Source: Escherichia coli
GTDB lineage: Bacteria > Pseudomonadota > Gammaproteobacteria > Enterobacterales > Enterobacteriaceae
NCBI RefSeq assembly: GCF_050920415.1
Contig: NZ_CP169309.1
Reading direction: 5' to 3' (one strand)
DNA: 64,000 bases
Shown here: in pieces, positions 14,738 to 57,860 of the stretch
How the letters are laid out: each line of letters opens with the position of its first letter
Position numbering within the stretch: position 1 is the first letter of the stretch
Position numbers and translations under genes: made by a program
The notes under the pieces: model-generated
Told to the model about the DNA's origin: nothing
Database searches by the model: none
What the model saw: only the letters and a program-made list of their open reading frames with translations

Positions 14738-14767
14738 AGGGAAGTGGCTTGCCACTTCCCTTTTTTG
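14738..14767 (+). terminator. Rho-independent terminator after cadA
   Basis: Hairpin gggaagtggc / gccacttccc followed by TTTTTT. Confidence 0.65.
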
Positions 14768-14783
14768 CTCATAAGGAGAACAC

Positions 14784-31298: not shown

Positions 31299-31413
31299 CC
31301 ACTATTCCGCTGAAGGCGTAATTGTTAAATAACATTACGCCGCCTGGCTTGAGGCCCTTTTAGTATGGCAACGTTTTCATAAAAATTGCTGCAAACAAAA
31401 ATGTCATACTTTT

Positions 31414-31441
31414 TGCGCGGTCCCACCCCGCGCTTTTTTTC
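31414..31441 (+). terminator. Terminator-like hairpin downstream of adiA
   Basis: gcgcgg / ccccgcgc stem followed by TTTTTTT. Confidence 0.5.
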
Positions 31442-31621
31442 GCCTGTTATTTATCCTGTAAAAAAATATGTACATGAGAAATTACTATAAAAATTTGTAA
31501 TATTAGTAAAACTCGTTATTTTTATGCATGTTTATATTCATCATACAATTATATAACCATTTCCCGGTATCGCTTTGCTTTAGCGAGAACTGGTCTTTTA
31601 TTCGCACTCAGGAGTACATGT

Positions 31622-32383
31622 ATGAGGATTTGCAGCGACCAACCTTGTATTGTTTTATTGACTGAAAAAGATGTCTGGATAAGGGTGAATGGGAAAGAAC
31701 CTATTAGCCTTAAAGCTAACCATATGGCGTTATTAAATTGTGAAAATAATATTATCGACGTCTCCTCTCTTAATAACACTTTGGTTGCTCATATTAGTCA
31801 CGACATCATCAAAGATTACCTCCGGTTTCTGAATAAAGATCTCTCGCAAATACCAGTATGGCAACGTAGTGCTACGCCCATCCTCACCCTGCCATGCCTG
31901 ACGCCAGACGTCTTTCGCGTTGCCGCGCAACATAGCATGATGCCCGCTGAAACTGAGTCAGAAAAGGAACGAACACGTGCATTATTATTCACTGTGCTAT
32001 CCCGTTTTCTCGACAGTAAAAAATTCCTTTCATTAATGATGTATATGTTACGTAATTGTGTAAGTGACAGCGTTTATCAAATTATTGAAAGCGATATCCA
32101 CAAAGACTGGAATCTTAGTATGGTAGCCAGTTGTTTATGTCTTAGCCCAAGTCTGTTAAAGAAAAAGCTGAAAAGCGAAAACACCAGTTATAGCCAAATA
32201 ATCACCACCTGCCGCATGCGTTATGCCGTCAATGAATTAATGATGGACGGTAAAAATATCTCTCAGGTCTCACAATCGTGTGGCTACAACAGTACGTCGT
32301 ACTTTATTTCTGTCTTTAAAGACTTCTACGGTATGACGCCTCTGCATTATGTTAGTCAGCACAGAGAACGCACTGTCGCCTGA
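31622..32383 (+). CDS. adiY: AraC-family regulator AdiY (253 aa)
   Basis: AraC-type HTH in C-terminal half; located between adiA and adiC. Confidence 0.85.
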   Translation: MRICSDQPCIVLLTEKDVWIRVNGKEPISLKANHMALLNCENNIIDVSSLNNTLVAHISHDIIKDYLRFLNKDLSQIPVWQRSATPILTLPCLTPDVFRVAAQHSMMPAETESEKERTRALLFTVLSRFLDSKKFLSLMMYMLRNCVSDSVYQIIESDIHKDWNLSMVASCLCLSPSLLKKKLKSENTSYSQIITTCRMRYAVNELMMDGKNISQVSQSCGYNSTSYFISVFKDFYGMTPLHYVSQHRERTVA

Positions 32384-32519
32384 TTTTTAACCTTAACGAA
32401 GAGCTATATTAATAACGGCATCAGCGATAACCCGGTCGATAATAATTCAACTATCGAATGCAGGCGTATGATATGACGTAATTTATTGTCACGAAGCTCG
32501 CCTTCGCAGGAGTTTAATT

Positions 32520-33857
32520 ATGTCTTCGGATGCTGATGCTCACAAAGTGGGCTTAATCCCCGTCACCCTGATGGTGTCGGGGAATATTATGGGGTCAGGT
32601 GTTTTTCTGTTACCTGCAAACCTGGCCTCCACTGGCGGGATTGCCATTTATGGATGGTTGGTGACGATTATCGGTGCGCTGGGGCTCTCGATGGTATACG
32701 CCAAAATGTCGTTCCTCGACCCAAGTCCTGGTGGTTCTTACGCTTACGCCCGCCGCTGCTTTGGCCCGTTTCTCGGTTATCAAACCAACGTCCTCTACTG
32801 GCTGGCCTGCTGGATCGGCAATATCGCCATGGTGGTCATTGGCGTTGGATATTTAAGTTACTTCTTCCCGATTCTGAAAGATCCACTGGTATTAACCATC
32901 ACCTGCGTCGTGGTGCTGTGGATCTTCGTCCTGCTGAACATTGTCGGTCCGAAAATGATCACCCGCGTGCAGGCCGTTGCCACCGTGCTGGCGCTGATCC
33001 CCATCGTCGGGATTGCCGTATTTGGCTGGTTCTGGTTCCGTGGTGAAACCTATATGGCGGCATGGAACGTCAGCGGCCTGGGCACCTTCGGCGCGATTCA
33101 AAGTACCCTTAACGTTACGCTGTGGTCGTTCATCGGTGTGGAAAGTGCCTCCGTTGCCGCAGGTGTGGTGAAAAACCCGAAACGCAACGTCCCTATCGCC
33201 ACCATTGGTGGGGTATTGATTGCCGCCGTTTGCTATGTGCTCTCCACCACCGCGATTATGGGGATGATCCCTAATGCCGCACTGCGCGTTTCTGCCTCGC
33301 CATTCGGTGATGCCGCACGGATGGCGTTGGGTGACACCGCCGGGGCCATTGTTTCCTTCTGCGCAGCTGCGGGTTGCTTAGGTTCACTGGGCGGCTGGAC
33401 GTTGCTGGCGGGTCAAACGGCGAAAGCCGCTGCCGATGACGGACTGTTCCCACCGATTTTTGCCCGTGTAAATAAAGCGGGTACGCCAGTGGCAGGGCTG
33501 ATTATCGTCGGTATTTTGATGACCATCTTCCAGCTCAGTAGCATTTCGCCAAACGCGACTAAAGAGTTCGGTCTGGTTTCTTCCGTGTCGGTCATCTTTA
33601 CACTGGTGCCATATCTTTACACCTGTGCGGCGTTACTGCTGCTCGGCCACGGCCACTTTGGTAAAGCACGCCCTGCATATCTGGCTGTTACTACCATTGC
33701 CTTCCTCTACTGCATCTGGGCCGTAGTAGGGTCCGGCGCGAAAGAGGTTATGTGGTCATTTGTCACCCTGATGGTCATCACCGCCATGTATGCGCTGAAT
33801 TACAACCGGCTGCATAAAAACCCGTATCCCTTAGATGCACCAATAAGCAAAGATTAA
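32520..33857 (+). CDS. adiC: Arginine:agmatine antiporter AdiC (445 aa)
   Basis: APC-family transporter, paralogue of cadB in this window (shared motif [13 protein letters not shown]). Confidence 0.93.
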
Positions 33858-33881
33858 TTCCCCTTAGTCAAGCAAACATAA

Positions 33882-33920
33882 AAGCCAACCTTAAGAACTT
33901 AAGGTTGGCTTAATTTTGCT
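33882..33920 (+). terminator. Rho-independent terminator after adiC
   Basis: Hairpin aagccaacctt / aaggttggctt followed by aaTTTTg. Confidence 0.5.
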
Positions 33921-33960
33921 TTGCGAGCATATGCGCACTTTGTTCGATGGAAACACCGTG

Positions 33961-35604
33961 ATGTTGAAGCGCCTACTAAAAAGACCCTCTTTGAATTTAC
34001 TCGCCTGGCTATTGCTGGCCGCTTTTTATATCGCTATCTGCCTGAATATTGCCTTTTTTAAACAGGTATTGCAGGCGTTGCCGCTGGACTCGCTGCATAA
34101 CGTACTTGTTTTCTTGTCGATGCCGGTCGTCGCTTTCAGCGTGATTAATATTGTCCTGACACTAAGCTCTTTCTTATGGCTTAATCGACCGCTGGCCTGC
34201 CTGTTTATTCTGGTTGGCGCGGCTGCACAATATTTCATAATGACTTACGGCATCGTCATCGACCGCTCGATGATTGCCAATATTATTGATACCACCCCAG
34301 CAGAAAGTTATGCGCTGATGACACCGCAAATGTTATTAACGCTGGGACTCAGCGGCGTACTTGCTGCGCTAATTGCCTGCTGGATTAAAATCAAACCTGC
34401 CACCTCGCATCTGCGCAGTGTTCTTTTCCGTGGTGCCAATATTCTGGTTTCTGTACTGCTGATTTTGCTGGTCGCCGCACTGTTTTATAAAGACTACGCC
34501 TCGTTGTTCCGCAACAACAAAGAGCTGGTGAAGTCCTTAAGCCCCTCTAACAGCATTGTTGCCAGCTGGTCATGGTACTCCCATCAGCGACTAGCAAATC
34601 TGCCACTGGTGCGAATTGGTGAAGACGCGCACCGCAACCCGTTAATGCAGAACGAGAAACGTAAAAATTTGACCATCCTGATTGTCGGCGAAACCTCGCG
34701 GGCGGAGAACTTCTCCCTCAACGGCTACCCGCGTGAAACGAACCCGCGGCTGGCGAAAGATAACGTGGTCTATTTCCCCAATACTGCGTCTTGCGGCACG
34801 GCAACGGCAGTTTCAGTACCGTGCATGTTCTCGGATATGCCGCGTGAGCATTACAAAGAAGAACTGGCACAGCACCAGGAAGGCGTGCTGGATATCATTC
34901 AGCGAGCGGGCATCAACGTGCTGTGGAATGACAACGATGGTGGCTGCAAAGGTGCCTGCGATCGCGTGCCTCACCAGAACGTCACTGCGCTGAACCTGCC
35001 TGGTCAGTGTATCAACGGCGAATGTTATGACGAAGTGCTTTTCCACGGGCTGGAAGAGTACATCACTAACCTGCAAGGTGATGGCGTAATTGTCTTACAC
35101 ACCATCGGCAGTCACGGCCCGACCTATTACAATCGCTATCCGCCACAGTTCAGGAAATTTACCCCTACCTGCGACACCAACGAGATCCAGACCTGTACCC
35201 AAGAGCAACTGGTAAACACTTACGACAATACGCTGGTCTACGTCGACTATATTGTTGATAAAGCAATTAATCTACTGAAAGAACATCAGGATAAATTTAC
35301 CACCAGCCTGGTTTATCTTTCTGACCACGGTGAATCGTTAGGTGAAAATGGCATCTATCTGCACGGTTTGCCTTATGCCATCGCCCCGGATAGCCAAAAA
35401 CAGGTGCCGATGCTGCTGTGGCTGTCTGAGGATTATCAAAAACGGTATCAGGTTGACCAAAGTTGCCTACAGAAACAGGCGCAAACGCAACACTATTCAC
35501 AAGACAATTTATTCTCCACGCTATTGGGATTAACTGGCGTTGAGACGAAGTATTACCAGGCTGCGGATGATATTCTGCAAACTTGCAGGAGAGTGAGTGA
35601 ATGA
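33961..35604 (+). CDS. eptA: Lipid A phosphoethanolamine transferase EptA (547 aa)
   Basis: N-terminal multi-TM domain plus periplasmic sulfatase-like domain; start at ATG 33961 within ORF 33916-35604; overlaps basR start by 4 bp. Confidence 0.9.
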
Positions 35605-42819: not shown

Positions 42820-43155
42820 ATGTCATTACCACACTGCCCAAAATGCAACTCCGAATACACCTACGAAGATAACGGCATGTACATCTGCCCGGAATGTGCC
42901 TACGAATGGAACGACGCAGAACCTGCACAGGAAAGCGACGAGCTGATCGTTAAAGATGCTAACGGCAATCTGCTGGCTGACGGCGACAGCGTTACCATCA
43001 TTAAAGATCTGAAGGTGAAAGGTAGCTCTTCGATGCTGAAGATCGGTACCAAAGTGAAAAACATTCGCCTGGTTGAAGGCGACCACAACATCGATTGCAA
43101 AATCGACGGTTTTGGTCCGATGAAACTGAAATCTGAGTTTGTGAAAAAGAACTGA
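42820..43155 (+). CDS. phnA: PhnA-family zinc-ribbon protein (YjdM, 111 aa)
   Basis: [32 protein letters not shown]... CxxC-x-CxxC zinc ribbon; start at ATG 42820 within ORF 42673-43155. Confidence 0.85.
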
Positions 43156-43187
43156 TTGTATTGCTCAATGTAATATTGGCACATGAT

Positions 43188-43335
43188 CGGTAGGCCGGAT
43201 AAGGCGCTCGCGCCGCATCCGGCTACGGTGCCGACTGCCTGATGCGACGCTCGCGCGTCTTATCAGGCCTACAAATTCTCGCACCATCCGGCAACGGTGC
43301 CTAATGCGACGCTTACCGAGTCTTATCAGCCCCCG
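43188..43335. repeat. REP / BIME cluster (about three REP units in alternating orientation)
   Basis: Units gtaggccggataaggcgctcgcgccgcatccggc, gcctgatgcgacgctcgcgcgtcttatcaggcctac and a third partial unit match the E. coli REP consensus. Confidence 0.75.
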
Positions 43336-43394
43336 CTCATCTGTATAATTTTCGAACTACACTTAACTGGCTTCTCTTAACTGAGGTCACCATC

Positions 43395-43838
43395 ATGCCG
43401 TTAAGTCCCTACCTCTCTTTTGCTGGTAACTGTTCCGATGCGATTGCCTATTATCAACGCACGTTGGGCGCGGAACTGCTTTATAAAATCAGCTTCGGCG
43501 AAATGCCGAAATCAGCGCAGGACAGCGCCGAGAACTGCCCTTCCGGTATGCAATTTCCCGATACCGCTATCGCCCATGCTAACGTGCGTATTGCCGGAAG
43601 CGATATCATGATGAGCGATGCCATACCGTCAGGAAAAGCCAGCTACTCCGGTTTTACACTGGTACTCGATTCGCAACAGGTCGAAGAAGGAAAACGCTGG
43701 TTTGATAACCTTGCTGCTAACGGAAAAATCGAAATGGCCTGGCAGGAAACTTTCTGGGCGCATGGCTTCGGCAAAGTCACCGATAAATTTGGCGTGCCGT
43801 GGATGATTAATGTCGTCAAACAACAACCAACGCACTAA
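43395..43838 (+). CDS. yjdN: Glyoxalase/VOC-fold protein YjdN (PhnB, 147 aa)
   Basis: Small soluble ORF in the conserved position between phnA and phnC. Confidence 0.75.
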   Translation: MPLSPYLSFAGNCSDAIAYYQRTLGAELLYKISFGEMPKSAQDSAENCPSGMQFPDTAIAHANVRIAGSDIMMSDAIPSGKASYSGFTLVLDSQQVEEGKRWFDNLAANGKIEMAWQETFWAHGFGKVTDKFGVPWMINVVKQQPTH

Positions 43839-43970
43839 CCCGCCGGGAGGCCCGCCCTCCCGCACTGTCATCGAATTCCCGTTAACTCTTCATCTGTTAG
43901 TCACTTTTAGTTAACAAAATCGTCACGATAATCCGCCACGATGGAGCCACTTTTTTAGGGAGGCTGCATC

Positions 43971-44759
43971 ATGCAAACGATTATCCGTGTCGAGAAGCTC
44001 GCCAAAACCTTCAATCAGCATCAGGCGCTGCATGCGGTTGATCTGAACATTCATCACGGTGAAATGGTGGCTCTGCTTGGGCCGTCCGGTTCCGGCAAAT
44101 CCACCCTTTTACGTCATTTAAGCGGTTTGATTACCGGCGATAAATCTGCCGGTAGCCATATCGAGCTGCTGGGCCGCACAGTCCAACGCGAAGGCCGCCT
44201 GGCCCGCGATATCCGCAAAAGCCGCGCCAACACCGGCTACATCTTCCAACAATTCAACCTGGTGAATCGCCTGAGCGTACTGGAGAACGTGCTGATTGGC
44301 GCGCTCGGCAGCACGCCATTCTGGCGCACCTGTTTTAGCTACTTCACCCGCGAGCAGAAACAGCGCGCGTTACAGGCGCTGACCCGCGTTGGCATGGTGC
44401 ACTTTGCCCATCAGCGCGTTTCCACCCTCTCCGGCGGACAGCAGCAGCGTGTGGCGATTGCCCGTGCGCTGATGCAGCAGGCGAAGGTGATTCTGGCCGA
44501 TGAACCCATCGCCTCGCTGGACCCGGAATCGGCGCGCATCGTGATGGACACCCTGCGCGACATTAACCAGAACGACGGCATTACCGTGGTCGTCACGCTG
44601 CATCAGGTGGATTACGCCCTGCGCTACTGCGAACGCATCGTCGCCCTGCGCCAGGGGCACGTCTTCTACGACGGCAGCAGCCAACAGTTTGATAACGAAC
44701 GTTTTGACCATCTCTACCGCAGCATTAACCGCGTCGAAGAGAACGCGAAAGCTGCCTGA
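43971..44759 (+). CDS. phnC: Phosphonate ABC transporter ATP-binding protein PhnC
   Basis: Walker [13 protein letters not shown] signature LSGGQQQR, Walker B ILADEP. Confidence 0.93.
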
Positions 44760-44783
44760 CATCCCCATCATTGAGGAAAACGA

Positions 44784-45800
44784 ATGAACGCTAAGATAAT
44801 TGCCTCGCTGGCCTTCACCAGCATGTTCAGCCTCAGCACCCTGTTCAGCCCGGCGCACGCCGAAGAGCAGGAAAAGGCGCTGAATTTCGGCATTATTTCA
44901 ACGGAATCACAGCAAAACCTGAAACCGCAATGGACGCCTTTCCTGCAAGATATGGAGAAGAAACTGGGCGTAAAGGTCAACGCCTTCTTTGCTCCGGACT
45001 ACGCGGGCATTATCCAGGGGATGCGCTTCAACAAAGTGGATATCGCCTGGTACGGCAACCTGTCGGCGATGGAAGCGGTGGATCGCGCCAACGGTCAGGT
45101 CTTCGCCCAGACGGTCGCGGCGGATGGATCGCCGGGTTACTGGAGCGTGTTGATCGTCAACAAAGATAGCCCGATCAACAACCTGAACGATCTGCTGGCC
45201 AAGCGTAAAGATCTCACCTTCGGCAATGGCGATCCTAACTCCACCTCTGGCTTCCTCGTCCCCGGCTACTACGTCTTCGCCAAAAACAATATCTCCGCCA
45301 GCGACTTCAAGCGCACCGTCAACGCCGGGCATGAAACCAACGCCCTCGCCGTCGCCAACAAGCAGGTGGATGTCGCCACCAACAACACTGAAAACCTCGA
45401 CAAGCTGAAAACCTCCGCGCCGGAGAAGCTGAAAGAACTGAAGGTGATCTGGAAATCGCCGCTGATCCCAGGCGATCCGATCGTCTGGCGCAAAAATCTG
45501 TCCGAAACCACCAAAGACAAGATCTACGACTTCTTTATGAACTACGGCAAAACGCCGGAAGAGAAAGCGGTGCTGGAACGCCTGGGCTGGGCGCCGTTCC
45601 GCGCCTCCAGCGACCTGCAACTGGTGCCAATTCGCCAGCTCGCACTGTTTAAAGAGATGCAAAGCGTGAAGGACAACAAAGGGCTGAACGAACAGGACAA
45701 GCTCGCGAAAACCACCGAGATACAGGCGCAACTGGATGACCTGGATCGCCTGAACAACGCGTTAAGCGCGATGAGTTCGGTGAGTAAAGCGGTGCAGTAA
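44784..45800 (+). CDS. phnD: Phosphonate ABC transporter periplasmic binding protein PhnD
   Basis: Signal peptide plus substrate-binding-protein fold; between phnC and phnE. Confidence 0.93.
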   Translation: MNAKIIASLAFTSMFSLSTLFSPAHAEEQEKALNFGIISTESQQNLKPQWTPFLQDMEKKLGVKVNAFFAPDYAGIIQGMRFNKVDIAWYGNLSAMEAVDRANGQVFAQTVAADGSPGYWSVLIVNKDSPINNLNDLLAKRKDLTFGNGDPNSTSGFLVPGYYVFAKNNISASDFKRTVNAGHETNALAVANKQVDVATNNTENLDKLKTSAPEKLKELKVIWKSPLIPGDPIVWRKNLSETTKDKIYDFFMNYGKTPEEKAVLERLGWAPFRASSDLQLVPIRQLALFKEMQSVKDNKGLNEQDKLAKTTEIQAQLDDLDRLNNALSAMSSVSKAVQ

Positions 45801-45813
45801 TGTGCTCGATCGG

Positions 45814-45905
45814 TCCCCTCTCCCTTGAGGGAGAGGGTTAGGGTGAGGGGGGAAATACGCACGCTGATGCCCTCACCCCGGCCCTCTCCCACAGGGAGAG
45901 GGAGA
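45814..45905. repeat. Pair of inverted GC-rich palindromic intergenic elements (boxC-like) between phnD and phnE
   Basis: gtcccctctcccttgagggagagggttagggtgagggg and, in opposite orientation, gccctcaccccggccctctcccacagggagagggag. Confidence 0.7.
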
Positions 45906-45926
45906 AAACATTAAACGGAGCCAAAC

Positions 45927-46706
45927 ATGCAAACCATCACCATCGCCCCACCCAAGCGCAGCTGGTTCTCGCTTCTGAGCTGGGCCATTGTTCTCGCCGT
46001 GCTGGTCGTCTCGTGGCAGGGCGCGGAAATGGCCCCGCTCACGCTGATTAAAGACGGCGGCAACATGGCGACGTTCGCCGCCGACTTCTTCCCGCCCGAT
46101 TTCAGCCAGTGGCAGGATTACCTCACCGAAATGGCCGTCACGCTGCAAATCGCCGTCTGGGGCACTGCGCTGGCAGTCGTTCTCTCCATCCCCTTCGGCC
46201 TGATGAGCGCCGAAAACCTGGTGCCGTGGTGGGTTTACCAGCCCGTTCGCCGCCTGATGGACGCCTGCCGCGCCATTAACGAGATGGTCTTCGCCATGCT
46301 GTTCGTGGTCGCCGTCGGTCTCGGTCCGTTCGCTGGCGTACTGGCGCTGTTTATCCACACCACCGGCGTGCTCTCCAAACTGCTTTCCGAAGCGGTGGAA
46401 GCGATTGAACCCGGCCCGGTGGAAGGCATTCGCGCCACCGGTGCCAATAAGCTCGAAGAGATCCTCTACGGCGTGCTGCCGCAGGTCATGCCGCTACTGA
46501 TTTCCTACTCACTCTATCGTTTCGAATCCAACGTGCGTTCCGCCACCGTTGTTGGCATGGTCGGCGCTGGCGGAATTGGCGTCACGCTGTGGGAAGCGAT
46601 TCGCGGTTTCCAGTTCCAGCAAACCTGCGCCCTGATGGTGCTGATTATCGTCACGGTCAGCCTGCTGGATTTCCTCTCTCAACGGTTGCGTAAGCACTTT
46701 ATCTGA
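45927..46706 (+). CDS. phnE: Phosphonate ABC transporter permease PhnE, uninterrupted frame (259 aa)
   Basis: Single continuous ORF with ABC permease EAA-like loop; no frameshift within the window. Confidence 0.9.
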
Positions 46707-46726
46707 TAAGCGAGGCATTGATATCT

Positions 46727-47452
46727 ATGCACTTGTCTACACCTCCGACCAGCTACCCAACACGCTATCAGGAGATAGCCGCAAAACTTGAGCAGGAGCT
46801 TCGTCAACACTACCGCTGCGGCGACTATCTTCCCGCCGAGCAGCAACTGGCAGCGCGCTTTGAGGTGAATCGCCACACCCTGCGCCGTGCCATCGACCAA
46901 CTGGTGGAAAAAGGCTGGGTACAGCGCCGTCAGGGCATCGGCGTACTGGTGCTGATGCGCCCGTTCGATTACCCGCTCAACGCCCAGGCGCGTTTTAGCC
47001 AGAACCTGCTGGATCAGGGTAGCCATCCCACCAGCGAAAAACTGCTGTCCGTGCTGCGCCCGGCCTCCGGTCACGTCGCTGACGCGCTGGGGATAACCGA
47101 GGGCGAGAACGTTATCCACCTGCGCACCCTGCGCCGGGTCAACGGCGTCGCGCTCTGTTTAATCGACCACTACTTTGCGGACCTCACTCTCTGGCCGACG
47201 CTGCAACGCTTCGACAGCGGCTCGCTGCACGATTTTTTGCACGAGCAAACGGGAATTGCGCTGCGCCGCAGCCAGACGCGGATCAGCGCCCGCCGCGCCC
47301 AGGCCAAAGAGTGCCAGCGTCTTGAAATTCCGAATATGTCGCCGCTGCTGTGCGTGCGCACCCTTAACCACCGTGACGGTGAAAGCAGCCCGGCGGAGTA
47401 CTCCGTCAGCCTGACGCGCGCCGACATGATTGAATTCACCATGGAGCACTGA
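46727..47452 (+). CDS. phnF: GntR-family repressor PhnF
   Basis: N-terminal GntR HTH (YLPAEQQLAARFEVNRHTLRRAIDQL) plus UTRA-like domain; start at ATG 46727. Confidence 0.92.
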   Translation: MHLSTPPTSYPTRYQEIAAKLEQELRQHYRCGDYLPAEQQLAARFEVNRHTLRRAIDQLVEKGWVQRRQGIGVLVLMRPFDYPLNAQARFSQNLLDQGSHPTSEKLLSVLRPASGHVADALGITEGENVIHLRTLRRVNGVALCLIDHYFADLTLWPTLQRFDSGSLHDFLHEQTGIALRRSQTRISARRAQAKECQRLEIPNMSPLLCVRTLNHRDGESSPAEYSVSLTRADMIEFTMEH

Positions 47453-47905
47453 ATGCACGCAGATACCGCGACCCGCCAGCACTGGATGTCCGTGCTGGCG
47501 CACAGCCAACCGGCTGAACTGGCTAACCGCCTTAAAGCGCTAAACATCACCACCGACTATGACATTATCCGCGCCGCCGAAACCGGCCTGGTACAGATTC
47601 AGGCGCGAATGGGTGGCACCGGCGAACGCTTTTTTGCTGGCGACGCTACGCTCACCCGCGCCGCTGTACGCCTTACTGACGGCACGCTCGGCTACAGCTG
47701 GGTGCTGGGGCGCGACAAACAGCACGCCGAACGCTGCGCGCTGATTGACGCGCTGATGCAGCAATCTCGCCACTTTCAAAACTTATCAGAAACCCTTATT
47801 GCCCCGCTGGACGCTGACCGTATGGCACGCATTGCCGCACGCCAGGCCGAAGTGAACGCCAGTCGGGTCGACTTCTTTACGATGGTTCGCGGAGACAACG
47901 CATGA
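47453..47905 (+). CDS. phnG: C-P lyase core complex subunit PhnG
   Basis: Order and size in the phn operon; overlaps phnH start. Confidence 0.9.
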
Positions 47906-48486
47906 CCCTGGAAACCGCTTTTATGCTTCCCGTGCAGGATGCCCAGCACAGTTTTCGTCGCCTGTTAAAGGCAATGAGCGAGCCGGGCGTGATTGTCGCC
48001 CTGCATCAGCTCAAACGCGGCTGGCAGCCGCTGAATATCGCCACCACCAGCGTGCTGCTGACGCTGGCCGATAACGACACGCCGGTGTGGCTTTCCGCGC
48101 CATTAAGTAACGATATCGTCAGCCAGAGCCTGCGTTTTCATACCAACGCCCCGCTGGTCAATCAGCCGGAACAGGCGACCTTCGCAGTGACGGATGAGGC
48201 GATTGCCAGCGAGCAGCTCAACGCCCTTTCCACCGGCACCGCCGTTGCGCCGGAAGCCGGTGCGACGTTGATTTTACAGGTCACCAGCCTGAGCGGCGGA
48301 CGCATGCTGCGCCTCACCGGCGCGGGTATTGCCGAAGAACGGATGATCGCCCCGCAACTGCCGGAGTGCATTCTGCACGAACTCACCGAGCGCCCGCACC
48401 CGTTCCCGCTCGGCATCGACCTGATCCTGACCTGCGGCGAGCGCCTGCTGGCTATTCCGCGAACCACTCATGTGGAGGTGTGCTGA
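47902..48486 (+). CDS. phnH: C-P lyase core complex subunit PhnH
   Basis: Order and size in the phn operon; stop overlaps phnI ATG. Confidence 0.9.
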
Positions 48487-49550
48487 TGTACGTTGCCGTG
48501 AAAGGGGGCGAGAAGGCGATCGACGCCGCCCACGCCCTGCAAGAGAGCCGACGCCGGGTCGATACCGATTTGCCTGAACTGAGCGTCGCCCAGATTGAAC
48601 AGCAGCTTAATCTCGCGGTGGATCGCGTGATGACCGAAGGCGGCATTGCCGACCGCGAACTGGCCGCACTGGCGCTGAAACAGGCCAGTGGCGATAACGT
48701 TGAAGCAATTTTCCTGCTGCGCGCCTACCGCACGACGCTGGCAAAACTGGCGGTAAGCGAGCCGCTCGACACCACCGAGATGCGTCTCGAACGCCGTATC
48801 TCCGCCGTTTATAAAGACATTCCTGGCGGCCAGCTGCTTGGCCCGACCTACGACTACACCCATCGCCTGCTCGATTTCACCCTGCTGGCGAATGGCGAAG
48901 CGCCGACGCTGACCACCACCGACAGCGAGCAAGCCCCATCGCCGCACGTTTTCAGCCTGCTGGCGCGTCAGGGGCTGGCGAAGTTTGAAGAGGATAGCGG
49001 CGCACAGCCGGATGACATCACCCGTACACCGCCGGTTTACCCTTGCTCTCGCGCCTCCCGCCTGCAACAGCTCATGCGCGGCGACGAAGGCTACTTGCTG
49101 GCGCTGGCCTACTCCACCCAGCGTGGTTACGGACGCAATCACCCGTTCGCAGGCGAAATCCGCAGTGGCTATATCGACGTGTCTATTGTGCCGGAAGAGC
49201 TGGGATTTGCGGTGAACGTCGGTGAACTGCTGATGACCGAGTGTGAAATGGTTAACGGTTTTATCGACCAGCCGGATGAGCCGCCGCACTTCACGCGCGG
49301 CTACGGGCTGGTGTTTGGCATGAGCGAGCGCAAAGCGATGGCAATGGCGCTGGTTGACCGCGCTCTACAAGCCCCGGAGTACGGCGAGCACGCGACAGGC
49401 CCGGCGCAGGATGAAGAGTTCGTGCTGGCGCATGCCGACAACGTCGAAGCCGCAGGCTTTGTCTCGCACCTCAAACTCCCGCACTACGTCGATTTCCAGG
49501 CCGAGCTGGAGCTACTCAAACGTCTGCAACAGGAGCAGAACCATGGCTAA
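48486..49550 (+). CDS. phnI: C-P lyase subunit PhnI (ribosyl-triphosphate-forming nucleosidase, 354 aa)
   Basis: Start at ATG 48486 ([13 protein letters not shown]...) inside the longer ORF 48366-49550. Confidence 0.92.
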   Translation: MYVAVKGGEKAIDAAHALQESRRRVDTDLPELSVAQIEQQLNLAVDRVMTEGGIADRELAALALKQASGDNVEAIFLLRAYRTTLAKLAVSEPLDTTEMRLERRISAVYKDIPGGQLLGPTYDYTHRLLDFTLLANGEAPTLTTTDSEQAPSPHVFSLLARQGLAKFEEDSGAQPDDITRTPPVYPCSRASRLQQLMRGDEGYLLALAYSTQRGYGRNHPFAGEIRSGYIDVSIVPEELGFAVNVGELLMTECEMVNGFIDQPDEPPHFTRGYGLVFGMSERKAMAMALVDRALQAPEYGEHATGPAQDEEFVLAHADNVEAAGFVSHLKLPHYVDFQAELELLKRLQQEQNHG

Positions 49551-50388
49551 TCTGAGCGGCTACAACTTTGCGTACCTCGACGAGCAGACCAAACGTATGA
49601 TCCGCCGCGCCATCTTAAAAGCGGTGGCGATCCCCGGTTATCAGGTGCCGTTTGGCGGGCGCGAGATGCCGATGCCATACGGCTGGGGAACCGGCGGCAT
49701 ACAGCTTACCGCCAGTGTGATTGGCGAAAGCGACGTGTTGAAGGTGATTGACCAGGGCGCGGATGACACCACCAACGCCGTATCAATTCGCAACTTTTTC
49801 AAGCGCGTGACCGGGGTAAACACCACTGAACGTACGGATGATGCGACGCTTATCCAGACGCGCCACCGCATCCCCGAAACGCCGCTGACCGAAGATCAGA
49901 TCATTATCTTCCAGGTGCCGATCCCGGAACCGCTGCGCTTTATCGAGCCGCGCGAAACGGAGACCCGCACCATGCACGCGCTGGAGGAGTACGGCGTGAT
50001 GCAGGTGAAACTGTATGAAGATATCGCCCGCTTCGGTCATATCGCCACCACCTACGCCTATCCGGTGAAGGTGAACGGACGCTACGTCATGGACCCATCG
50101 CCGATCCCGAAATTTGATAACCCGAAAATGGACATGATGCCCGCCCTGCAACTGTTCGGCGCGGGGCGTGAGAAGCGTATTTATGCGGTGCCGCCGTTTA
50201 CCCGCGTGGAAAGCCTCGATTTCGACGATCATCCGTTCACCGTTCAGCAGTGGGATGAACCCTGCGCCATCTGCGGATCGACCCACAGCTATCTCGATGA
50301 AGTGGTGCTGGATGACGCCGGAAACCGCATGTTTGTCTGCTCCGATACCGATTATTGCCGCCAACAGAGCGAGGCGAGAAGCCAATGA
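49543..50388 (+). CDS. phnJ: C-P lyase catalytic subunit PhnJ (radical SAM-dependent, 281 aa)
   Basis: MANLSGYNFAYLDEQTKRMIRRAILKAVAIPGYQVPFGG... with C-terminal Cys cluster CAICGSTHSYLDEVVLDDAGNRMFVCSDTDYC. Confidence 0.93.
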   Translation: MANLSGYNFAYLDEQTKRMIRRAILKAVAIPGYQVPFGGREMPMPYGWGTGGIQLTASVIGESDVLKVIDQGADDTTNAVSIRNFFKRVTGVNTTERTDDATLIQTRHRIPETPLTEDQIIIFQVPIPEPLRFIEPRETETRTMHALEEYGVMQVKLYEDIARFGHIATTYAYPVKVNGRYVMDPSPIPKFDNPKMDMMPALQLFGAGREKRIYAVPPFTRVESLDFDDHPFTVQQWDEPCAICGSTHSYLDEVVLDDAGNRMFVCSDTDYCRQQSEARSQ

Positions 50389-51143
50389 ATCAACCGTTAC
50401 TTTCGGTCAATAACCTGACCCACCTTTACGCGCCGGGCAAAGGCTTCAGCGATGTCTCTTTTGATTTATGGCCGGGGGAAGTGCTGGGCATTGTCGGGGA
50501 ATCCGGTTCCGGGAAGACCACGCTGCTGAAATCAATCTCCGCCCGTCTGACACCGCAACAGGGGGAGATTCACTATGAAAACCGTTCCCTCTATGGCATG
50601 AGCGAGGCCGACCGCCGTCGCCTGCTGCGCACCGAATGGGGCGTGGTGCATCAGCATCCGCTCGACGGCCTGCGCCGTCAGGTGTCAGCAGGCGGCAATA
50701 TCGGCGAACGGCTGATGGCGACCGGGGCGCGTCATTACGGCGATATTCGCGCCACCGCGCAGAAGTGGCTGGAGGAGGTGGAGATTCCCTCCAACCGTAT
50801 CGACGACCTGCCGACCACTTTTTCCGGCGGTATGCAGCAGCGTTTGCAGATTGCCCGCAACCTGGTGACGCATCCGAAGCTGGTGTTTATGGATGAACCG
50901 ACCGGCGGGCTGGATGTATCGGTACAGGCGCGCCTGCTCGATCTGCTGCGCGGTCTGGTGGTGGAGCTGAATCTGGCGGTGGTGATTGTCACCCATGATT
51001 TAGGCGTCGCCCGCCTGCTGGCGGACCGTTTGCTGGTGATGAAGCAGGGGCAGGTGGTGGAGAGTGGGTTAACCGACCGCGTACTCGACGACCCGCATCA
51101 TCCGTATACCCAGTTGCTGGTGTCATCGGTTTTGCAGAATTGA
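50385..51143 (+). CDS. phnK: ABC-type ATPase-like C-P lyase accessory protein PhnK
   Basis: Walker A GESGSGKTT; start at ATG 50385. Confidence 0.92.
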   Translation: MNQPLLSVNNLTHLYAPGKGFSDVSFDLWPGEVLGIVGESGSGKTTLLKSISARLTPQQGEIHYENRSLYGMSEADRRRLLRTEWGVVHQHPLDGLRRQVSAGGNIGERLMATGARHYGDIRATAQKWLEEVEIPSNRIDDLPTTFSGGMQQRLQIARNLVTHPKLVFMDEPTGGLDVSVQARLLDLLRGLVVELNLAVVIVTHDLGVARLLADRLLVMKQGQVVESGLTDRVLDDPHHPYTQLLVSSVLQN

Positions 51144-51165
51144 GTTGCAACACTTTGCGCACTGA

Positions 51166-51275
51166 TCCCCTCACCCCGGCCCTCTCCCGGAGGGAGAGGG
51201 AGAAAACCGGCGCAATATTCAACACCGTGCACAAGCGGTCCCCTCGCCCCTTTGGGGAGAGGGTTAGGGTGAGGG
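51166..51275. repeat. Second pair of the same inverted GC-rich palindromic elements, between phnK and phnL
   Basis: tcccctcaccccggccctctcccggagggagagggag and gtcccctcgcccctttggggagagggttagggtgagggg; same family as 45814-45905. Confidence 0.7.
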
Positions 51276-51320
51276 GCAATGTGCGCACCGCTCCCAAACA
51301 TGCGAACCACGAGGCGAAAA

Positions 51321-52001
51321 ATGATTAACGTACAAAACGTCAGTAAAACCTTCATCCTGCACCAGCAAAACGGCGTGCGCCTGCCCGTCTTACAACGCGC
51401 CTCGCTCACCGTCAACGCGGGCGAATGCGTGGTGCTCCACGGTCACTCCGGCAGCGGCAAATCAACTCTGCTACGCTCGCTGTACGCCAACTATCTGCCC
51501 GACGAAGGGCAAATCCAGATCAAACACGGTGACGAATGGGTAGACCTGGTCACCGCGCCAACGCGCAAAGTGGTGGAAATCCGCAAAACCACTGTCGGCT
51601 GGGTAAGCCAGTTTCTGCGCGTCATCCCGCGTATTTCGGCACTGGAAGTGGTGATGCAGCCGCTGCTCGATACCGGCGTTTCGCGTGATGCCTGCGCCGC
51701 TAAAGCCGCGCGTCTGCTCACCCGCCTGAACGTGCCGGAACGTCTGTGGCACCTGGCGCCATCGACCTTCTCCGGCGGCGAACAGCAGCGCGTCAACATC
51801 GCGCGCGGCTTTATCATCGATTACCCCATTCTGCTGCTCGACGAACCTACTGCCTCGCTGGACGCCAAAAACAGCGCCGCGGTGGTGGAACTGATCCGCG
51901 AAGCTAAAACCCGCGGCGCAGCCATCGTCGGCATCTTCCACGACGAAGCCGTACGCAATGACGTCGCCGACCGCCTGCACCCAATGGGAGCCTCTGCATG
52001 A
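51321..52001 (+). CDS. phnL: ABC-type ATPase-like C-P lyase protein PhnL
   Basis: Walker [10 protein letters not shown]; start at ATG 51321 ([11 protein letters not shown]...). Confidence 0.92.
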
Positions 52002-53134
52002 TTATCAATAACGTCAAACTGGTGCTGGAAAACGAAGTGGTACACGGTTCGCTGGAGGTGCAGGACGGCGAAATTCGCGCCTTTGCCGAAAGCCAGAGCC
52101 GCCTGCCAGAAGCGATGGACGGCGAAGGTGGCTGGCTGCTGCCGGGACTGATTGAGCTGCATACCGATAATCTGGATAAATTCTTCACCCCGCGCCCGAA
52201 AGTGGACTGGCCCGCCCACTCGGCGATGAGCAGCCACGATGCGCTGATGGTGGCGAGCGGCATCACCACCGTGCTGGACGCCGTGGCGATTGGCGACGTG
52301 CGCGACGGCGGCGATCGGCTGGAGAATCTGGAAAAGATGATCAACGCCATCGAAGAGACGCAGAAACGCGGCGTCAACCGCGCCGAGCACCGCCTGCACC
52401 TGCGCTGCGAACTGCCGCATCACACTACGCTGCCGCTGTTTGAAAAACTGGTGCAGCGCGAGCCGGTCACGCTGGTGTCGCTAATGGACCACTCACCGGG
52501 CCAGCGCCAGTTCGCCAATCGCGAGAAGTATCGCGAATATTACCAGGGCAAATACTCGCTCACCGATGCGCAGATGCAGCAGTACGAAGAGGAACAACTG
52601 GCGCTTGCCGCACGCTGGTCGCAGCCGAATCGCGAAACCATCGCCGCAATGTGCCGCGCGCGACAAATTGCCCTCGCCAGCCACGATGACGCCACGCACG
52701 CGCACGTTGCCGAATCCCACCAGCTTGGCAGCGTAATCGCCGAATTTCCCACCACGTTCGAAGCGGCGGAAGCTTCGCGCAAGCATGGCATGAATGTATT
52801 GATGGGCGCGCCGAATATTGTGCGCGGCGGTTCGCACTCCGGCAACGTGGCGGCCAGTGAACTGGCACAGCTTGGTCTGCTGGATATCCTCTCTTCCGAC
52901 TACTACCCCGCCAGCCTGCTCGATGCGGCATTCCGCGTCGCCGATGACGAGAGCAACCGCTTTACGCTGCCGCAGGCGGTGAAGCTGGTGACTAAAAATC
53001 CGGCGCAGGCGCTTAATCTTCAGGATCGCGGGGTGATTGGCGAGGGCAAACGCGCCGACCTGGTGCTGGCGCATCGCAAGGGCAACCACATTCATATCGA
53101 TCACGTCTGGCGTCAGGGTAAAAGGGTGTTCTGA
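51998..53134 (+). CDS. phnM: Amidohydrolase-family ribosyl-triphosphate diphosphatase PhnM
   Basis: Metal-dependent amidohydrolase motifs; operon position. Confidence 0.92.
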
Positions 53135-53691
53135 TGACGGGAAAACTGATTTGGTTAATGGGGGCCTCTGGCTCCGGAAAAGACAGTCTGTTGACGGAAC
53201 TCCGCCAGCGGGAACAAACTCAGCTACTGGTAGCGCATCGCTACATCACGCGCGCCGCCAGCGCCGGAAGTGAAAACCATATCGCCCTGAGCGAGCAGGA
53301 GTTTTTTACCCGCGCGGGGCAGAACCTTCTGGCCTTAAGCTGGCACGCCAACGGCCTGTATTATGGCATCGGCGTCGAGATTGACCTCTGGCTGCACGCT
53401 GGATTTGACGTGGTGGTCAACGGCTCACGCGCCCATCTACCGCAGGCGCGGGCGCGCTATCAATCGGCGCTGCTGCCCGTTTGTTTACAGGTTTCGCCAG
53501 AGATCCTGCGCCAGCGCCTGGAAAACCGTGGTCGTGAAAATGCCAGTGAAATTAACGCCCGGCTGGCGCGCGCTGCCCGCTATACTCCTCAGGATTGTCT
53601 TACGCTCAATAATGACGGCAGCCTGCGCCAGTCGGTCGACAAGCTGCTGACGCTGATTGATCTGAAGGAGAAACACCATGCCTGCTTGTGA
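53134..53691 (+). CDS. phnN: Ribose 1,5-bisphosphate phosphokinase PhnN
   Basis: P-loop [10 protein letters not shown]; operon position. Confidence 0.92.
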
Positions 53692-54112
53692 GCTTCGCCC
53701 GGCTACGCAGTACGACACCGACGCAGTTTACGCGCTGATTTGTGAGCTAAAACAGGCGGAGTTTGACCACCACGCGTTTCGCGTGGGCTTTAACGCCAAT
53801 CTGCGCGACCCGAACATGCGCTACCATCTGGCGCTGCTGGATGGCGAAGTTGTCGGCATGATCGGCCTGCATTTGCAGTTTCATCTGCATCATGTCAACT
53901 GGATCGGCGAAATTCAGGAACTGGTGGTGATGCCGCAGGCGCGCGGTCTGAACGTCGGCAGTAAATTACTGGCATGGGCCGAAGAAGAAGCCCGCCAGGC
54001 CGGGGCCGAAATGACCGAGCTTTCCACCAACGTCAAGCGCCACGACGCGCACCGTTTCTATCTGCGCGAAGGCTACGAGCAGAGCCACTTCCGCTTCACC
54101 AAGGCGCTGTAA
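53678..54112 (+). CDS. phnO: GNAT aminoalkylphosphonate N-acetyltransferase PhnO
   Basis: GNAT motif ([26 protein letters not shown]); operon position. Confidence 0.92.
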
Positions 54113-54113
54113 C

Positions 54114-54872
54114 ATGAGCCTGACCCTCACACTTACTGGCACTGGCGGCGCACAGGGTGTTCCCGCATGGGGCTGTGAGTGCGCGGCCTGCGCCAGAGCG
54201 CGGCGCTCACCGCAGTATCGCCGCCAGCCATGCAGCGGCGTCGTGAAGTTTAACGACGCGATCACCCTGATCGACGCCGGGCTGCACGATCTCGCCGATC
54301 GCTGGTCGCCCGGATCGTTCCAGCAGTTTTTGCTGACGCACTACCATATGGATCACGTGCAGGGGCTGTTTCCGCTGCGCTGGGGCGTGGGCGATTCGAT
54401 CCCGGTCTACGGCCCGCCGGATGAACAGGGCTGCGACGATCTGTTTAAACATCCGGGCCTGCTTGATTTCAGCCACACGGTGGAGCCATTTGTGGTGTTT
54501 GATTTGCAGGGATTGCAGGTGACGCCGCTACCGCTTAACCATTCGAAACTCACTTTCGGCTATTTACTGGAAACGGCGCACAATCGGGTGGCGTGGCTGT
54601 CTGACACCGCGGGCCTGCCAGAAAACACGCTGAAATTTTTACTCAATAATCATCCGCAGGTGATGGTGATTGATTGCAGCCATCCGCCGCGCGAGGATGT
54701 GCCGCGTAATCACTGCGATTTAAACACCGTGCTGGCGCTGAATGAGATTATCCGTTCACCGCGCGTGATTCTGACGCACATCAGCCACCAGTTTGATGCG
54801 TGGCTGATGGAAAATACGCTGCCATCGGGGGTTGAGGCGGGGTTTGATGGGATGGAGATTGGGGTGGAGTGA
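54114..54872 (+). CDS. phnP: Metallo-beta-lactamase-fold phosphodiesterase PhnP
   Basis: HxHxDH motif ([10 protein letters not shown]); last gene of the operon. Confidence 0.92.
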
Positions 54873-54906
54873 TGGGTGAGGGGCGATGCCTGCTCTAGAC
54901 TCAACA

Positions 54907-55236
54907 TCACCGCCCATACTCATCTTCCATTCTCCGCTCTTCATCTTCTAGCTGCCGACGCTCCTGATCCAGCTGGCGCTGGCGATCGTCCAGCTGCTTG
55001 CGGCGATCTTCAAACTGGCGGCGGCGATCGTCATATTGTCTGCGCCGATCGTCGTTCACTTCACGCTGCCAGCCGTCGTCGCGCGAATCTTCATAGTCTC
55101 GCCCACGGTCAGGGTTATAAGCATCGTTAATCGCCTGCTGAATATTGCCAATGGTGTCGTCGATAATATCGGCCTGGGCCGGAACGGTGGACAGCGTGAG
55201 CAGGGTGAATAAAATAAATAGCGGAAAACGTTTCAT
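54907..55236 (-). CDS. yjdP: Secreted protein with highly charged D/R/Q/E-rich repetitive C-terminus (YjdP-like, 109 aa)
   Basis: Signal peptide MKRFPLFILFTLLTLSTVPAQA followed by repeats DDRRRQYDDRRRQFEDRRKQLDDRQRQLDQERRQLEDEERR. Confidence 0.7.
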   Translation of the reverse strand: MKRFPLFILFTLLTLSTVPAQADIIDDTIGNIQQAINDAYNPDRGRDYEDSRDDGWQREVNDDRRRQYDDRRRQFEDRRKQLDDRQRQLDQERRQLEDEERRMEDEYGR

Positions 55237-55304
55237 TAGCCAACCTCAAAAAGAAACTCTATCCACATTAGTCATTACTCATCCATGCAAGTAGTGGATG
55301 AATC

Positions 55305-55517
55305 TCAATTTTTCCGCTGCTCTATTGCCGTAATCGCCTCCACGCGTTGTTGATGACGACCGCCTTCGTACTGCGCGCCCAGCCACGCATCCACAATCAT
55401 TTTTGCCAGTTCGAGGCCAACCACTCGTGAACCAAAAGCCAGTGCAACTTCACTGGCGTAATGCGGATAATCAGTGCGCTCTGACGACCTGGTTTCTTTA
55501 TCAATCCCCTCACTCAT
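55305..55517 (-). pseudogene. rpiB: Decayed remnant of ribose-5-phosphate isomerase B / allose-6-phosphate isomerase (rpiB)
   Basis: 70-codon frame MSEGIDKETRSSERTDYPHYASEVALAFGSRVVGLELAKMIVDAWLGAQYEGGRHQQRVEAITAIEQRKN retains the RpiB/LacAB SxxRTDYP and C-terminal GGRHQQR segments but lacks the N-terminal MKIAxGxDHxG segment and the central GILICGTGxGxSIAANK active-site segment. Confidence 0.55.
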
Positions 55518-55874
55518 TGACTATGAATAAAAGGCTGGCACAGCAACGCAGAATCCTGCGGTGCCAGCGACATGACCGCCCATTGCTCCGGTACGTTTTT
55601 TAATAAGAAACACCGGTTGCATTGATTAATTGTGCTCAGTATTTGCCGAAGTACAATATATATAATAAATATATAAAACACCTCATATTATTTACAGAGA
55701 TAATGAATTCGCGTACTTTTCCCTCTTCAGCACAAATGCCTAATAAAATGGCTCGTTCCGCTCACACTTCCACTTATTAAAGTCGCAAATTCCCAATTAT
55801 GATAACGCCAGCTTTAAATGACGTATTTTGCATGGATTACATATTTACGACATAAATGATAAATGGAGATTTAT

Positions 55875-57860
55875 ATGAATAACTCTCGGTTATTCCGTTT
55901 GAGCAGGATTGTTATTGCGTTAACTGCCGCCAGCGGCATGATGGTAAATACCGCTCACGCAACAGATGAAGCGAAAGCCGCGACTCAATATACCCAGCAG
56001 GTTAATCAGCATTACGCAAAATCATTACCGTTTAGCGATCGTCAGGACTTTGACGATGCCCAGCGCGGATTTATCGCCCCGCTGCTGGATGAAGGTATTC
56101 TGCGCGATGCGAATGGCAAAGTTTACTACCGCGCGGATGATTACAAATTTGATATTAATGCCGCTGCGCCGGAAACCGTAAACCCCAGCCTGTGGCGTCA
56201 GTCGCAGATCAACGGCATTTCTGGCCTGTTCAAAGTCACCGATAAAATGTATCAGGTACGCGGCCAGGATATCTCTAACATTACATTCGTTGAGGGCGAG
56301 AAAGGCATTATTGTTATCGACCCACTGGTAACGCCGCCTGCCGCAAAAGCCGCACTTGACCTTTACTTCCAGCATCGTCCGCAAAAACCGATTGTTGCTG
56401 TGATTTACACCCACAGCCACGCCGACCATTATGGCGGTGTGAAAGGCATTATCTCTGAAGCGGATGTTAAATCTGGCAAAGTGCAAGTGATCGCTCCGGC
56501 AGGCTTTATGGACGAAGCCATCAGCGAAAACGTGCTGGCGGGTAACATCATGAGCCGCCGTGCGCTCTACTCTTACGGTCTGTTACTGCCGCATAACGCG
56601 CAAGGCAACGTGGGCAACGGCCTGGGCGTGACGCTGGCAACGGGCGACCCGAGCATTATTGCGCCAACCAAAACGATTGTCAGAACTGGCGAGAAGATGA
56701 TTATCGACGGCCTGGAATTTGACTTCCTGATGACTCCGGGTAGCGAAGCGCCAGCCGAAATGCACTTCTATATTCCGGCCCTGAAAGCCCTGTGTACCGC
56801 CGAAAACGCCACGCATACCCTGCACAACTTCTACACCCTGCGCGGCGCGAAAACCCGCGATACCAGCAAGTGGACAGAGTATCTGAACGAAACGCTGGAT
56901 ATGTGGGGTAACGACGCGGAAGTACTGTTTATGCCACACACCTGGCCGGTCTGGGGCAATAAGCATATCAATGATTATATTGGTAAATATCGCGATACTA
57001 TCAAATACATTCACGACCAGACCCTGCACCTGGCGAACCAGGGTTACACCATGAATGAAATTGGCGACATGATTAAGCTGCCACCTGCGCTTGCCAATAA
57101 CTGGGCCAGCCGCGGCTATTACGGTTCTGTCAGCCACAACGCCCGCGCGGTGTATAACTTCTATCTTGGCTATTACGACGGTAACCCGGCTAACCTGCAT
57201 CCGTATGGTCAGGTGGAGATGGGTAAACGTTACGTGCAAGCTCTGGGCGGTTCTGCCCGCGTTATTAACCTGGCGAAAGAAGCGAACAAGCAAGGTGATT
57301 ATCGCTGGTCGGCAGAACTGCTGAAACAGGTGATTGCCGCCAACCCGGGTGACCAGGTCGCGAAGAATCTGCAAGCGAATAACTTTGAACAGCTGGGCTA
57401 TCAGGCCGAGTCCGCCACCTGGCGCGGTTTCTACCTGACCGGCGCAAAAGAGCTGCGCGAAGGGGTGCATAAGTTCAGCCACGGCACCACCGGTTCTCCG
57501 GACACCATTCGCGGGATGTCGGTCGAAATGCTGTTCGACTTTATGGCCGTTCGCCTCGATAGCGCGAAAGCCGCAGGTAAGAATATCAGCCTGAACTTCA
57601 ATATGAGCAACGGCGATAACCTCAACCTGACGCTGAACGATAGCGTGCTTAACTACCGTAAAACGCTGCAACCTGAAGCCAACGCCTCTTTCTACATCAG
57701 CCGTGAAGATCTTCACGCCGTGCTGACCGGACAAGCCAAAATGGCGGATCTGGTAAAAGCGAAGAAAGCCAAAATTATTGGCAATGGCGCGAAACTGGAA
57801 GAAATTATTGCCTGTCTGGATAATTTCGATTTGTGGGTGAATATCGTAACCCCAAATTAA
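55875..57860 (+). CDS. yjcS: Alkyl/aryl-sulfatase of the metallo-beta-lactamase fold (YjcS, ~661 aa)
   Basis: Signal peptide, HxHxDH motif ([10 protein letters not shown]) and C-terminal SCP2-like domain; start at ATG 55875 within ORF 55863-57860. Confidence 0.85.

Follow-up and report, generated by a model that had tools for sequence, protein, structure and literature searches.

The phnCDEFGHIJKLMNOP operon lies on the + strand of the E. coli window (i.e. the whole 64,000-nt stretch of contig NZ_CP169309.1 analysed here), which shows 100% identity with strain MFDS1022581. Its phnD gene, encoding the periplasmic phosphonate-binding protein, runs from 44784 to 45800 with a TAA stop at 45798-45800, according to both the open reading frame list and the PGAP annotation of the identical record. 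The gap to phnE spans 45801-45926 (126 nt), and the phnE start signals occupy 45917-45929 (+), with a Shine-Dalgarno GGAG at 45917-45920 and the ATG at 45927, as read from the sequence. Most of this gap is taken up by a composite repeat that consists, from left to right, of a conserved left flank beginning TGTGCTCGATCGGT (45801-45815, +), unit A (45816-45849, +; CCCTCTCCC-TTGA-GGGAGAGGG-TTA-GGGTGAGGG), a 20-nt linker GGGAAATACGCACGCTGATG (45850-45869) that by sequence and fold is the loop of a long predicted hairpin, unit B in inverted orientation (45870-45902, -; CCCTCTCCC-TGT-GGGAGAGGG-CCG-GGGTGAGGG) and a conserved right flank AGAAAAC (45903-45909, +). The sequence-only reading had placed two inverted GC-rich units in 45814-45905 and had them fill most of the gap; both units are read directly at these coordinates, at ~34 nt each, and the pair covers 92 nt of the gap, or 109 nt (45801-45909) with the conserved flanks. 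A repeat search resolves units A and B into 27-nt inverted arms that are 81% complementary, together with two internal perfect palindromes of 9-10 nt. The composite of flanks, units and linker (~107 nt) behaves as one unit, and a near-identical copy (93.6% identity) lies in the mrcB-hrpB spacer of other E. coli, where it is bordered by the same left flank; the right flank is common to that paralogous copy and to the collapsed alleles discussed below.

What lies between phnD and phnE is BoxC, a repeat already known from enterobacteria, present here as two full-length units in inverted orientation, one of type A and one of type B. The pattern 5'-CCCTCNCCC N3-6 GGGNGAGGG N3 GGGNGAGGG-3', which defines the family under the name TM_ECO (Holder et al. 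2015, PMC4666352), has four exact matches in the window, at 45816 (unit A), 45870 (unit B), 51168 and 51241, against an expectation by chance of 0.00 from 100 dinucleotide shuffles. The second loop of TM_ECO reads TTA in type A and CCG in type B, and close inverted pairs always join A with B, as in each of the five inverted pairs among the 23 copies of MG1655 (PMC4666352). Both window pairs obey this rule, with TTA(+)/CCG(-) at phnD-phnE and CCG(-)/TTA(+) at phnK-phnL, and all four window units lie in spacers, as befits an intergenic, multi-copy and strain-variable element. The window sequences moreover match HPG1 and HPG2 letter for letter (Kaplan et al. 2016, PMC5100583), and unit A shares its 21-nt GGGAGAGGGTTAGGGTGAGGG with those K-12 copies that are commonest (HPG1/type A). 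These last 21 nt of unit A match the canonical G-quadruplex motif G3N3G3N3G3N3G3 on the mRNA-sense strand, at 45829-45849 and again at 51255-51275; judged by its sequence, the third GGGTGAGGG arm makes BoxC a triplex or G-quadruplex motif.

BoxC has been published under four names: BoxC (1990s), PIT, TM_ECO (PMC4666352) and HPG1/HPG2, the last as a putative quadruplex-hairpin-duplex switch (Kaplan et al. 2016, PMC5100583). As later papers trace them, the name BoxC goes back to Bergler 1992 and to Bachellier in the 1990s, and PIT, for potential intrastrand triplex element, to Hoyne and Maher 2000. The phn copies agree with the published ones in sequence pattern, in the TTA/CCG loop variants, in the pairing of A with B in inverted orientation, in lying strictly between genes, in being multi-copy in E. 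coli and Enterobacter, in presence or absence according to strain, and in collapse to one hairpin. Some Enterobacter genomes have more than 300 copies. Since the literature already describes the family, the A+B pairs, the variation between strains and the collapse into single hairpins, the finding itself is already known. The element shows no difference; only its setting does, in that the phn pairs lie inside an operon whereas most K-12 copies lie between operons. K-12 has one copy between pstA and pstB and none in the two phn slots, its only phn-associated copies being those after phnP; these, between yjdP and phnP, are recorded in PMC5100583 and also in the K-12 loci named by PMC4666352. The table of Kaplan et al. 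adds copies at hrpB-mrcB, at fabI-ycjD and at pstA-pstB inside the pst operon (PMC5100583), and the K-12 locations of TM_ECO show no bias toward operon position (PMC4666352). The unit is not confined to one site: in addition to the four window units, E. coli genomes hold a median of ~15 blast-detectable places (range 1-29), and the window strain holds 5 to 8. An Rfam search of 43000-56000 at E ≤ 1 gave no RNA family covering the element, the sole match on it, mir-1228, being due to chance (27 bits versus a gathering score of 88).

A second composite fills the phnK-phnL spacer (51156-51288, +), between the phnK stop codon at 51141-51143 and the phnL start given by PGAP at 51321. Here the order of types is reversed, with type B at 51168-51200 (-) and type A at 51241-51275 (+), the triplex arms face outward, and the flanks GCGCAC...GTGCGC close the stem; recurrence of the family between phnK and phnL, as claimed earlier, is thus borne out. 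For annotation, BoxC explains spurious starts in open reading frame calls, namely ATG 51279 and, on the reverse strand, GTG 45892. The mechanically called phnL frame begins at ATG 51279, and the real start is at 51321 by PGAP and by alignment to K-12; as ATG 51279 lies inside the flank of the BoxC composite, it gives phnL a false N-terminal extension of 14 codons. The reverse-strand frame at 45542-45892, which had been put down to the repeat as a whole, owes to it only the start and ~30 codons, and the remainder is antisense to phnD.

Sequence GGGTGAGGG occurs five times in the window (0.22 expected), the fifth occurrence being a lone remnant at 54874, just after phnP. There a single GGGTGAGGGG (54874-54883, +) directly follows the phnP stop and is a remnant of the BoxC cluster that K-12 has between phnP and yjdP. 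The phnP-yjdP gap is a 146-nt BoxC cluster in K-12 and 34 nt in the window (54873-54906, beginning TGGGTGAGGGG); O157:H7 is intermediate at 76 nt, and the 27 nt of strain O18 are unrelated. The 34-nt form has the shape expected if a deletion had joined two partial direct repeats (GGTGAGGG/GAGAGGG).

Transcription of phnCDEFGHIJKLMNOP runs through the BoxC pair and so copies it into RNA. The strand at 45814-45905 (+) is predicted to fold into a single long hairpin of ~40 bp with few bulges, in which the two units pair with each other; 13 nt separate the stem from the phnD stop codon and ~12 nt separate it from the phnE ribosome-binding site. The strong hairpin proposed earlier is accordingly what folding predicts for both spacers, far below shuffled sequences in energy: -70.2 kcal/mol (minimum free energy; z = -5.8) at phnD-phnE, where 0 of 200 shuffles fold as well, and -87.6 kcal/mol (z = -5.6) at phnK-phnL, where no shuffle does. 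Purine-motif triplexes do not form in RNA (PMC4666352), so the realistic alternatives at the RNA level are the hairpin or a G-quadruplex in unit A. The predicted fold also has GCUC of the left flank (45800-45807) pairing weakly with GAGC of the phnE Shine-Dalgarno region (45918-45928); this pairing is predicted in the collapsed allele as well and not in the K-12 REP allele, and may be due to chance. An intrinsic (Rho-independent) terminator, i.e. a GC-rich stem with a U-rich tract behind it, is rejected, since no U-tract follows either stem (the phnD-phnE stem is followed by AGAAAACAUUAAAC with the tail AGAAAACAUU) and a consensus scan finds no terminator-like site on the + strand at 45814-45905 or 51156-51288.

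In K-12 both phn slots hold canonical REP/BIME pairs, and K-12 and about 75% of E. coli have these unrelated pairs in both. In the comparison with K-12 the exchange of REP for BoxC is exact between stop codon and ribosome-binding site, and the flanks align. Comparison of phn operons across strains, which the sequence-only reading had called for, shows the BoxC pair to be variably present. Among 5426 complete E. coli genomes the full pair occupies phnD-phnE in 356, and 1337 have a BoxC-derived sequence when collapsed forms are included, BoxC having collapsed to a single hairpin in about 980; the K-12-type REP allele is found there at ≥90% identity in about 4230. At phnK-phnL 545 of the 5426 have a BoxC pair and the remainder, judged from evenly spaced samples, have REP. 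The phnD-phnE alleles comprise the full pair, a collapsed hairpin, a collapsed hairpin of opposite orientation, a REP pair, and a REP pair whose first REP has collapsed. The collapsed BoxC allele is a deletion between two GGGAGAGGG direct repeats that leaves one perfect hairpin, the "palindrome effect" of Holder et al. (PMC4666352), and E. coli deletion derivatives always retain one intact hairpin. Every sampled allele folds, with energies of -23 to -70 kcal/mol and, weak outer pairs aside, a main stem that starts no more than 14 nt past the stop codon, and no empty phnD-phnE allele was met in 20 records spaced evenly through 5442 matching E. coli records. The three phn repeat slots assort independently in eight E. 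coli haplotypes, in which most combinations are seen, so that linkage of the slots is rejected.

A PhnD scan of species-representative genomes gave 80 loci, and the phnD-phnE junction was recovered in 79. It holds a BoxC element in 39 of these, comprising 27 loci with at least one full TM motif (Enterobacter, Leclercia, Lelliottia, Kluyvera, Huaxiibacter, Silvania, Pseudocitrobacter and some Buttiauxella) and 12 with a BoxC-type simple hairpin. A further 28 have REP (Citrobacter, Salmonella arizonae and diarizonae, Cedecea, Dryocola, and isolated Enterobacter and Kluyvera species), and seven have a unique hairpin (Atlantibacter, Enterobacillus, strain B14 and two Buttiauxella); those of Atlantibacter, Enterobacillus and strain B14 show no repeat elsewhere in their own 17-kb loci, a weak test that covers the loci only. 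The last five comprise three non-folding spacers (Vibrio and Oceanisphaera) and two Enterobacteriaceae with no spacer. A hairpin is thus predicted at 74 of 76 enterobacterial junctions, the other two being those without a spacer; median z-scores by hairpin class range from -4.0 to -8.5, and hairpin strength from -19 to -143 kcal/mol. The phnK-phnL junction differs: most genera have a gap of just 9 nt there (TAA-GAGGCCAAC-ATG), REP clusters occur in many lineages and BoxC rarely, and even within Citrobacter it may be empty or occupied, REP being present in some and not all. Some loci are more elaborate. Pseudocitrobacter faecalis has two tandem whole composites at phnD-phnE (locus 9015-9265) and four hairpin units at phnK-phnL (about 14500-14800), while in Pseudenterobacter, Leclercia adecarboxylata and Buttiauxella izardii the two outer TM units at phnD-phnE enclose minisatellite-like arrays, built either from partial units or from a ~47-nt unit that is unrelated.

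BoxC and REP/BIME have much in common, both being GC-rich imperfect palindromes that usually occur as inverted pairs in the gap from a stop codon to the ribosome-binding site that follows. In sequence, however, they show no similarity. The REP consensus is absent from BoxC, as is the GTAG/CTAC head that the REP-associated transposase recognises, and REP lacks the third purine arm that gives BoxC its triplex or quadruplex potential. The window elements do not carry the REP consensus arms (GCCGGATG / CATCCGGC, GTCGGAT / ATCCGAC, flanking GTAG/CTAC), and the phnD-phnE and phnK-phnL spacers of the window have 0 REP half-sites versus 3 in each K-12 spacer. REP/BIME hairpins are established stabilisers of mRNA 3' ends after binding-protein genes and, within 15 nt of a stop codon, brakes on translation.

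The identification as BoxC is secure; its function we infer, and to our knowledge none has been shown for BoxC. Newbury et al. are said to have described in 1987 a REP stabiliser at malE-malF, and the classical REP role after malE and hisJ reportedly rests on that work and on Higgins et al. 1988. By analogy with these cases, and on the predicted fold, there is about an even chance that the BoxC pair is a REP-equivalent hairpin placed after a binding-protein gene and acting on the mRNA. In phn mRNA its stem would then do what REP/BIME hairpins do behind other genes for binding proteins: with 3'-to-5' exonucleases blocked, phnC-phnD would outlive the phnE-to-phnP segment, giving more binding protein than permease. 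The ~40-bp duplex could plausibly be an RNase III substrate too, and because it lies within 15 nt of the stop codon the stem may slow the terminating ribosome; ribosomes are stalled by REPs within that distance of a stop codon, according to Liang et al. 2015 as cited in PMC12306157. Stem-loops after 5' binding-protein genes set the stoichiometry of ABC importers, and at least 15 are predicted in E. coli (PMC9045158). The earlier suggestion of an effect on differential mRNA stability or stoichiometry is plausible in that it fits a position directly after the binding-protein gene; the K-12 REP pairs in the same slots and the hairpin in 74 of 76 enterobacterial loci also fit it. As a divide between transporter and lyase genes the hairpin was misplaced, for the actual split sets phnC and phnD apart from phnE and everything downstream. 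A literature search on phnD/phnE with REP or hairpin returned nothing specific to the phnD-phnE spacer.

These comparisons lead to a more general proposal, that of a conserved "hairpin slot" after phnD whose occupant would have been replaced many times in enterobacterial evolution by unrelated elements because any strong stem serves; we advance it tentatively, as somewhat short of an even chance. The main reading itself already takes the slot as conserved and its occupant as interchangeable, whether this is BoxC as a pair or collapsed to a hairpin, a pair of REPs, or a hairpin of unique sequence. At phnK-phnL the copy is more probably an insertion that is tolerated than one that is needed. If the slot reading is true, it would supply the first function for BoxC after 30 years without one. 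Three modest points appear to be new: that within one operon two unrelated families, BoxC and REP, stand in for each other at exactly the same positions; that the phnD-phnE hairpin slot is nearly universal in the Enterobacteriaceae examined, with repeated turnover of its occupant; and that E. coli offers a natural allelic series of graded hairpin strength, from -23 to -70 kcal/mol. Together they make testable the old question of whether BoxC does anything.

Several observations speak against a selected function, namely the negative tests of PIT, the lack of an orientation bias, the wide range of hairpin strengths and the dispensable phnK-phnL slot, and these fit the main rival, in which BoxC is a selfish or neutral element in permissive stop-to-RBS gaps. 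BoxC composites would, like REPs, accumulate in gaps where they do no harm and have no selected effect on phn, and the hairpin would belong to the way in which the element itself propagates or persists, not to the operon; this too may be the case, although we think it rather more probably wrong than right. In tests of BoxC/PIT, as PMC4666352 cites them from Hoyne and Maher, there was neither promoter or terminator activity nor any effect on RNA polymerase, and no regulatory effect of the family figures in the literature as that paper summarises it. The hairpin strengths of -19 to -143 kcal/mol argue against tight tuning. All four orientations of the BoxC pair relative to phn transcription occur. 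RNA-level selection was looked for by strand asymmetry, the sense RNA being expected to have G-U pairs where the antisense has A-C mismatches, and this test was uninformative or negative: given the four orientations, and a sense RNA of greater stability than the antisense in only 6 of 28 species, a strand-specific signature is absent among those 28. Neutral filling also accommodates a phnK-phnL slot that is empty (9 nt) in most genera and variable within Citrobacter, the independent assortment of the three slots among the eight E. coli haplotypes, the near-identical 107-nt composite in the unrelated mrcB-hrpB spacer, and the presence of 1 to 29 blast-detectable places per E. coli genome. It accounts poorly, however, for a hairpin at phnD-phnE in 74 of 76 enterobacterial loci, seven of them unique and not found repeated in their own loci, for the intact hairpin that E. 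coli deletion derivatives always keep, and for the lack of an empty phnD-phnE allele among the 20 records sampled evenly from 5442.

As a dispersed element, the BoxC pair resembles the REPINs (Bertels and Rainey 2011, PMC3116915): both consist of two inverted short repeats and a spacer that together make one ~100-nt unit, both form a long hairpin, and both are dispersed intergenically without target-site duplications (PMC3116915). Over the ~18 kb that surround the phn operon (window ~36.7-55.0 kb), PGAP annotates no transposase gene. We know of no mobilising gene for BoxC, whereas REPINs are tied to a RAYT transposase gene.

A second rival moves the effect to DNA, where the purine-rich strand would form an intrastrand triplex or G-quadruplex during replication or transcription, with instability or polymerase pausing as the outcome. 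In vitro a TM_ECO oligonucleotide does form a stable triplex, and E. coli strains differ by rearrangement more at TM loci than at control loci, but in vivo DMS footprinting revealed no triplex and the duplex dominated in vitro once the complementary strand was present (PMC4666352). Circular dichroism of HPG1 and HPG2 gave hairpin and quadruplex signatures (PMC5100583). The deletion between GGGAGAGGG direct repeats, the inverted derivative and the replacement by REP that are seen at phnD-phnE would suit such a structure; instability nevertheless explains the allelic series and not the retention of a hairpin at phnD-phnE across genera, and REP alleles at the same slot have deletions too. A role for non-B DNA is on balance improbable.

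Transcription of phnE to phnP reportedly depends on the promoter upstream of phnC, as Makino et al. are said to have found in 1991, and this counts against an internal terminator or attenuator that would pass only a fraction of polymerases from phnD into phnE. Such a device, although it would match in position the internal terminators after binding-protein genes in Clostridia (PMC9045158) and the role suggested by Kaplan et al. for copies within operons (PMC5100583), is very improbable in view of the AGAAAACAUUAAAC that stands in place of a U-rich tract behind the phnD-phnE stem, the lack of such a tract at phnK-phnL, the absence of a consensus call at either, and the inactivity of PIT elements as terminators in the published tests, as PMC4666352 cites them from Hoyne and Maher. 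The internal stem-loops of ABC importers share with the phn hairpin the site after a 5' binding-protein gene and the proposed excess of binding protein, but they are partial intrinsic terminators with U-rich tails and energies of -10 to -38 kcal/mol (PMC9045158), whereas the phn hairpin has no U-tract and is far more stable.

The surroundings of the operon show some further features. A canonical REP/BIME pair lies between yjdM and yjdN at 43193-43269, where Rfam matches naRNA4, the nucleoid-associated REP325-type RNA, at 99 bits (E = 1e-17) and more weakly on the other strand; this is the only REP-type Rfam match in the region, and it places both repeat families within 3 kb. From phnE to phnO (45882-53862) the window is 98.2% identical to the type strain of Pseudocitrobacter vendiensis (locus 9033-17014). 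Against nearly all other E. coli the phn operon of the window has 93-95.4% identity, reaching at least 99% in just 2 of 5426 genomes, and the flanking proP region is 81% identical between Escherichia and Pseudocitrobacter. These identities suggest that the two genera have recently exchanged the phn operon horizontally, at one and the same location on the chromosome. The adi-eptA region (window 30000-34000) is about 97.6% identical to typical E. coli and at least 99% identical in 17 genomes only, and from these identities the strain appears to belong to a sparsely sampled E. coli lineage.
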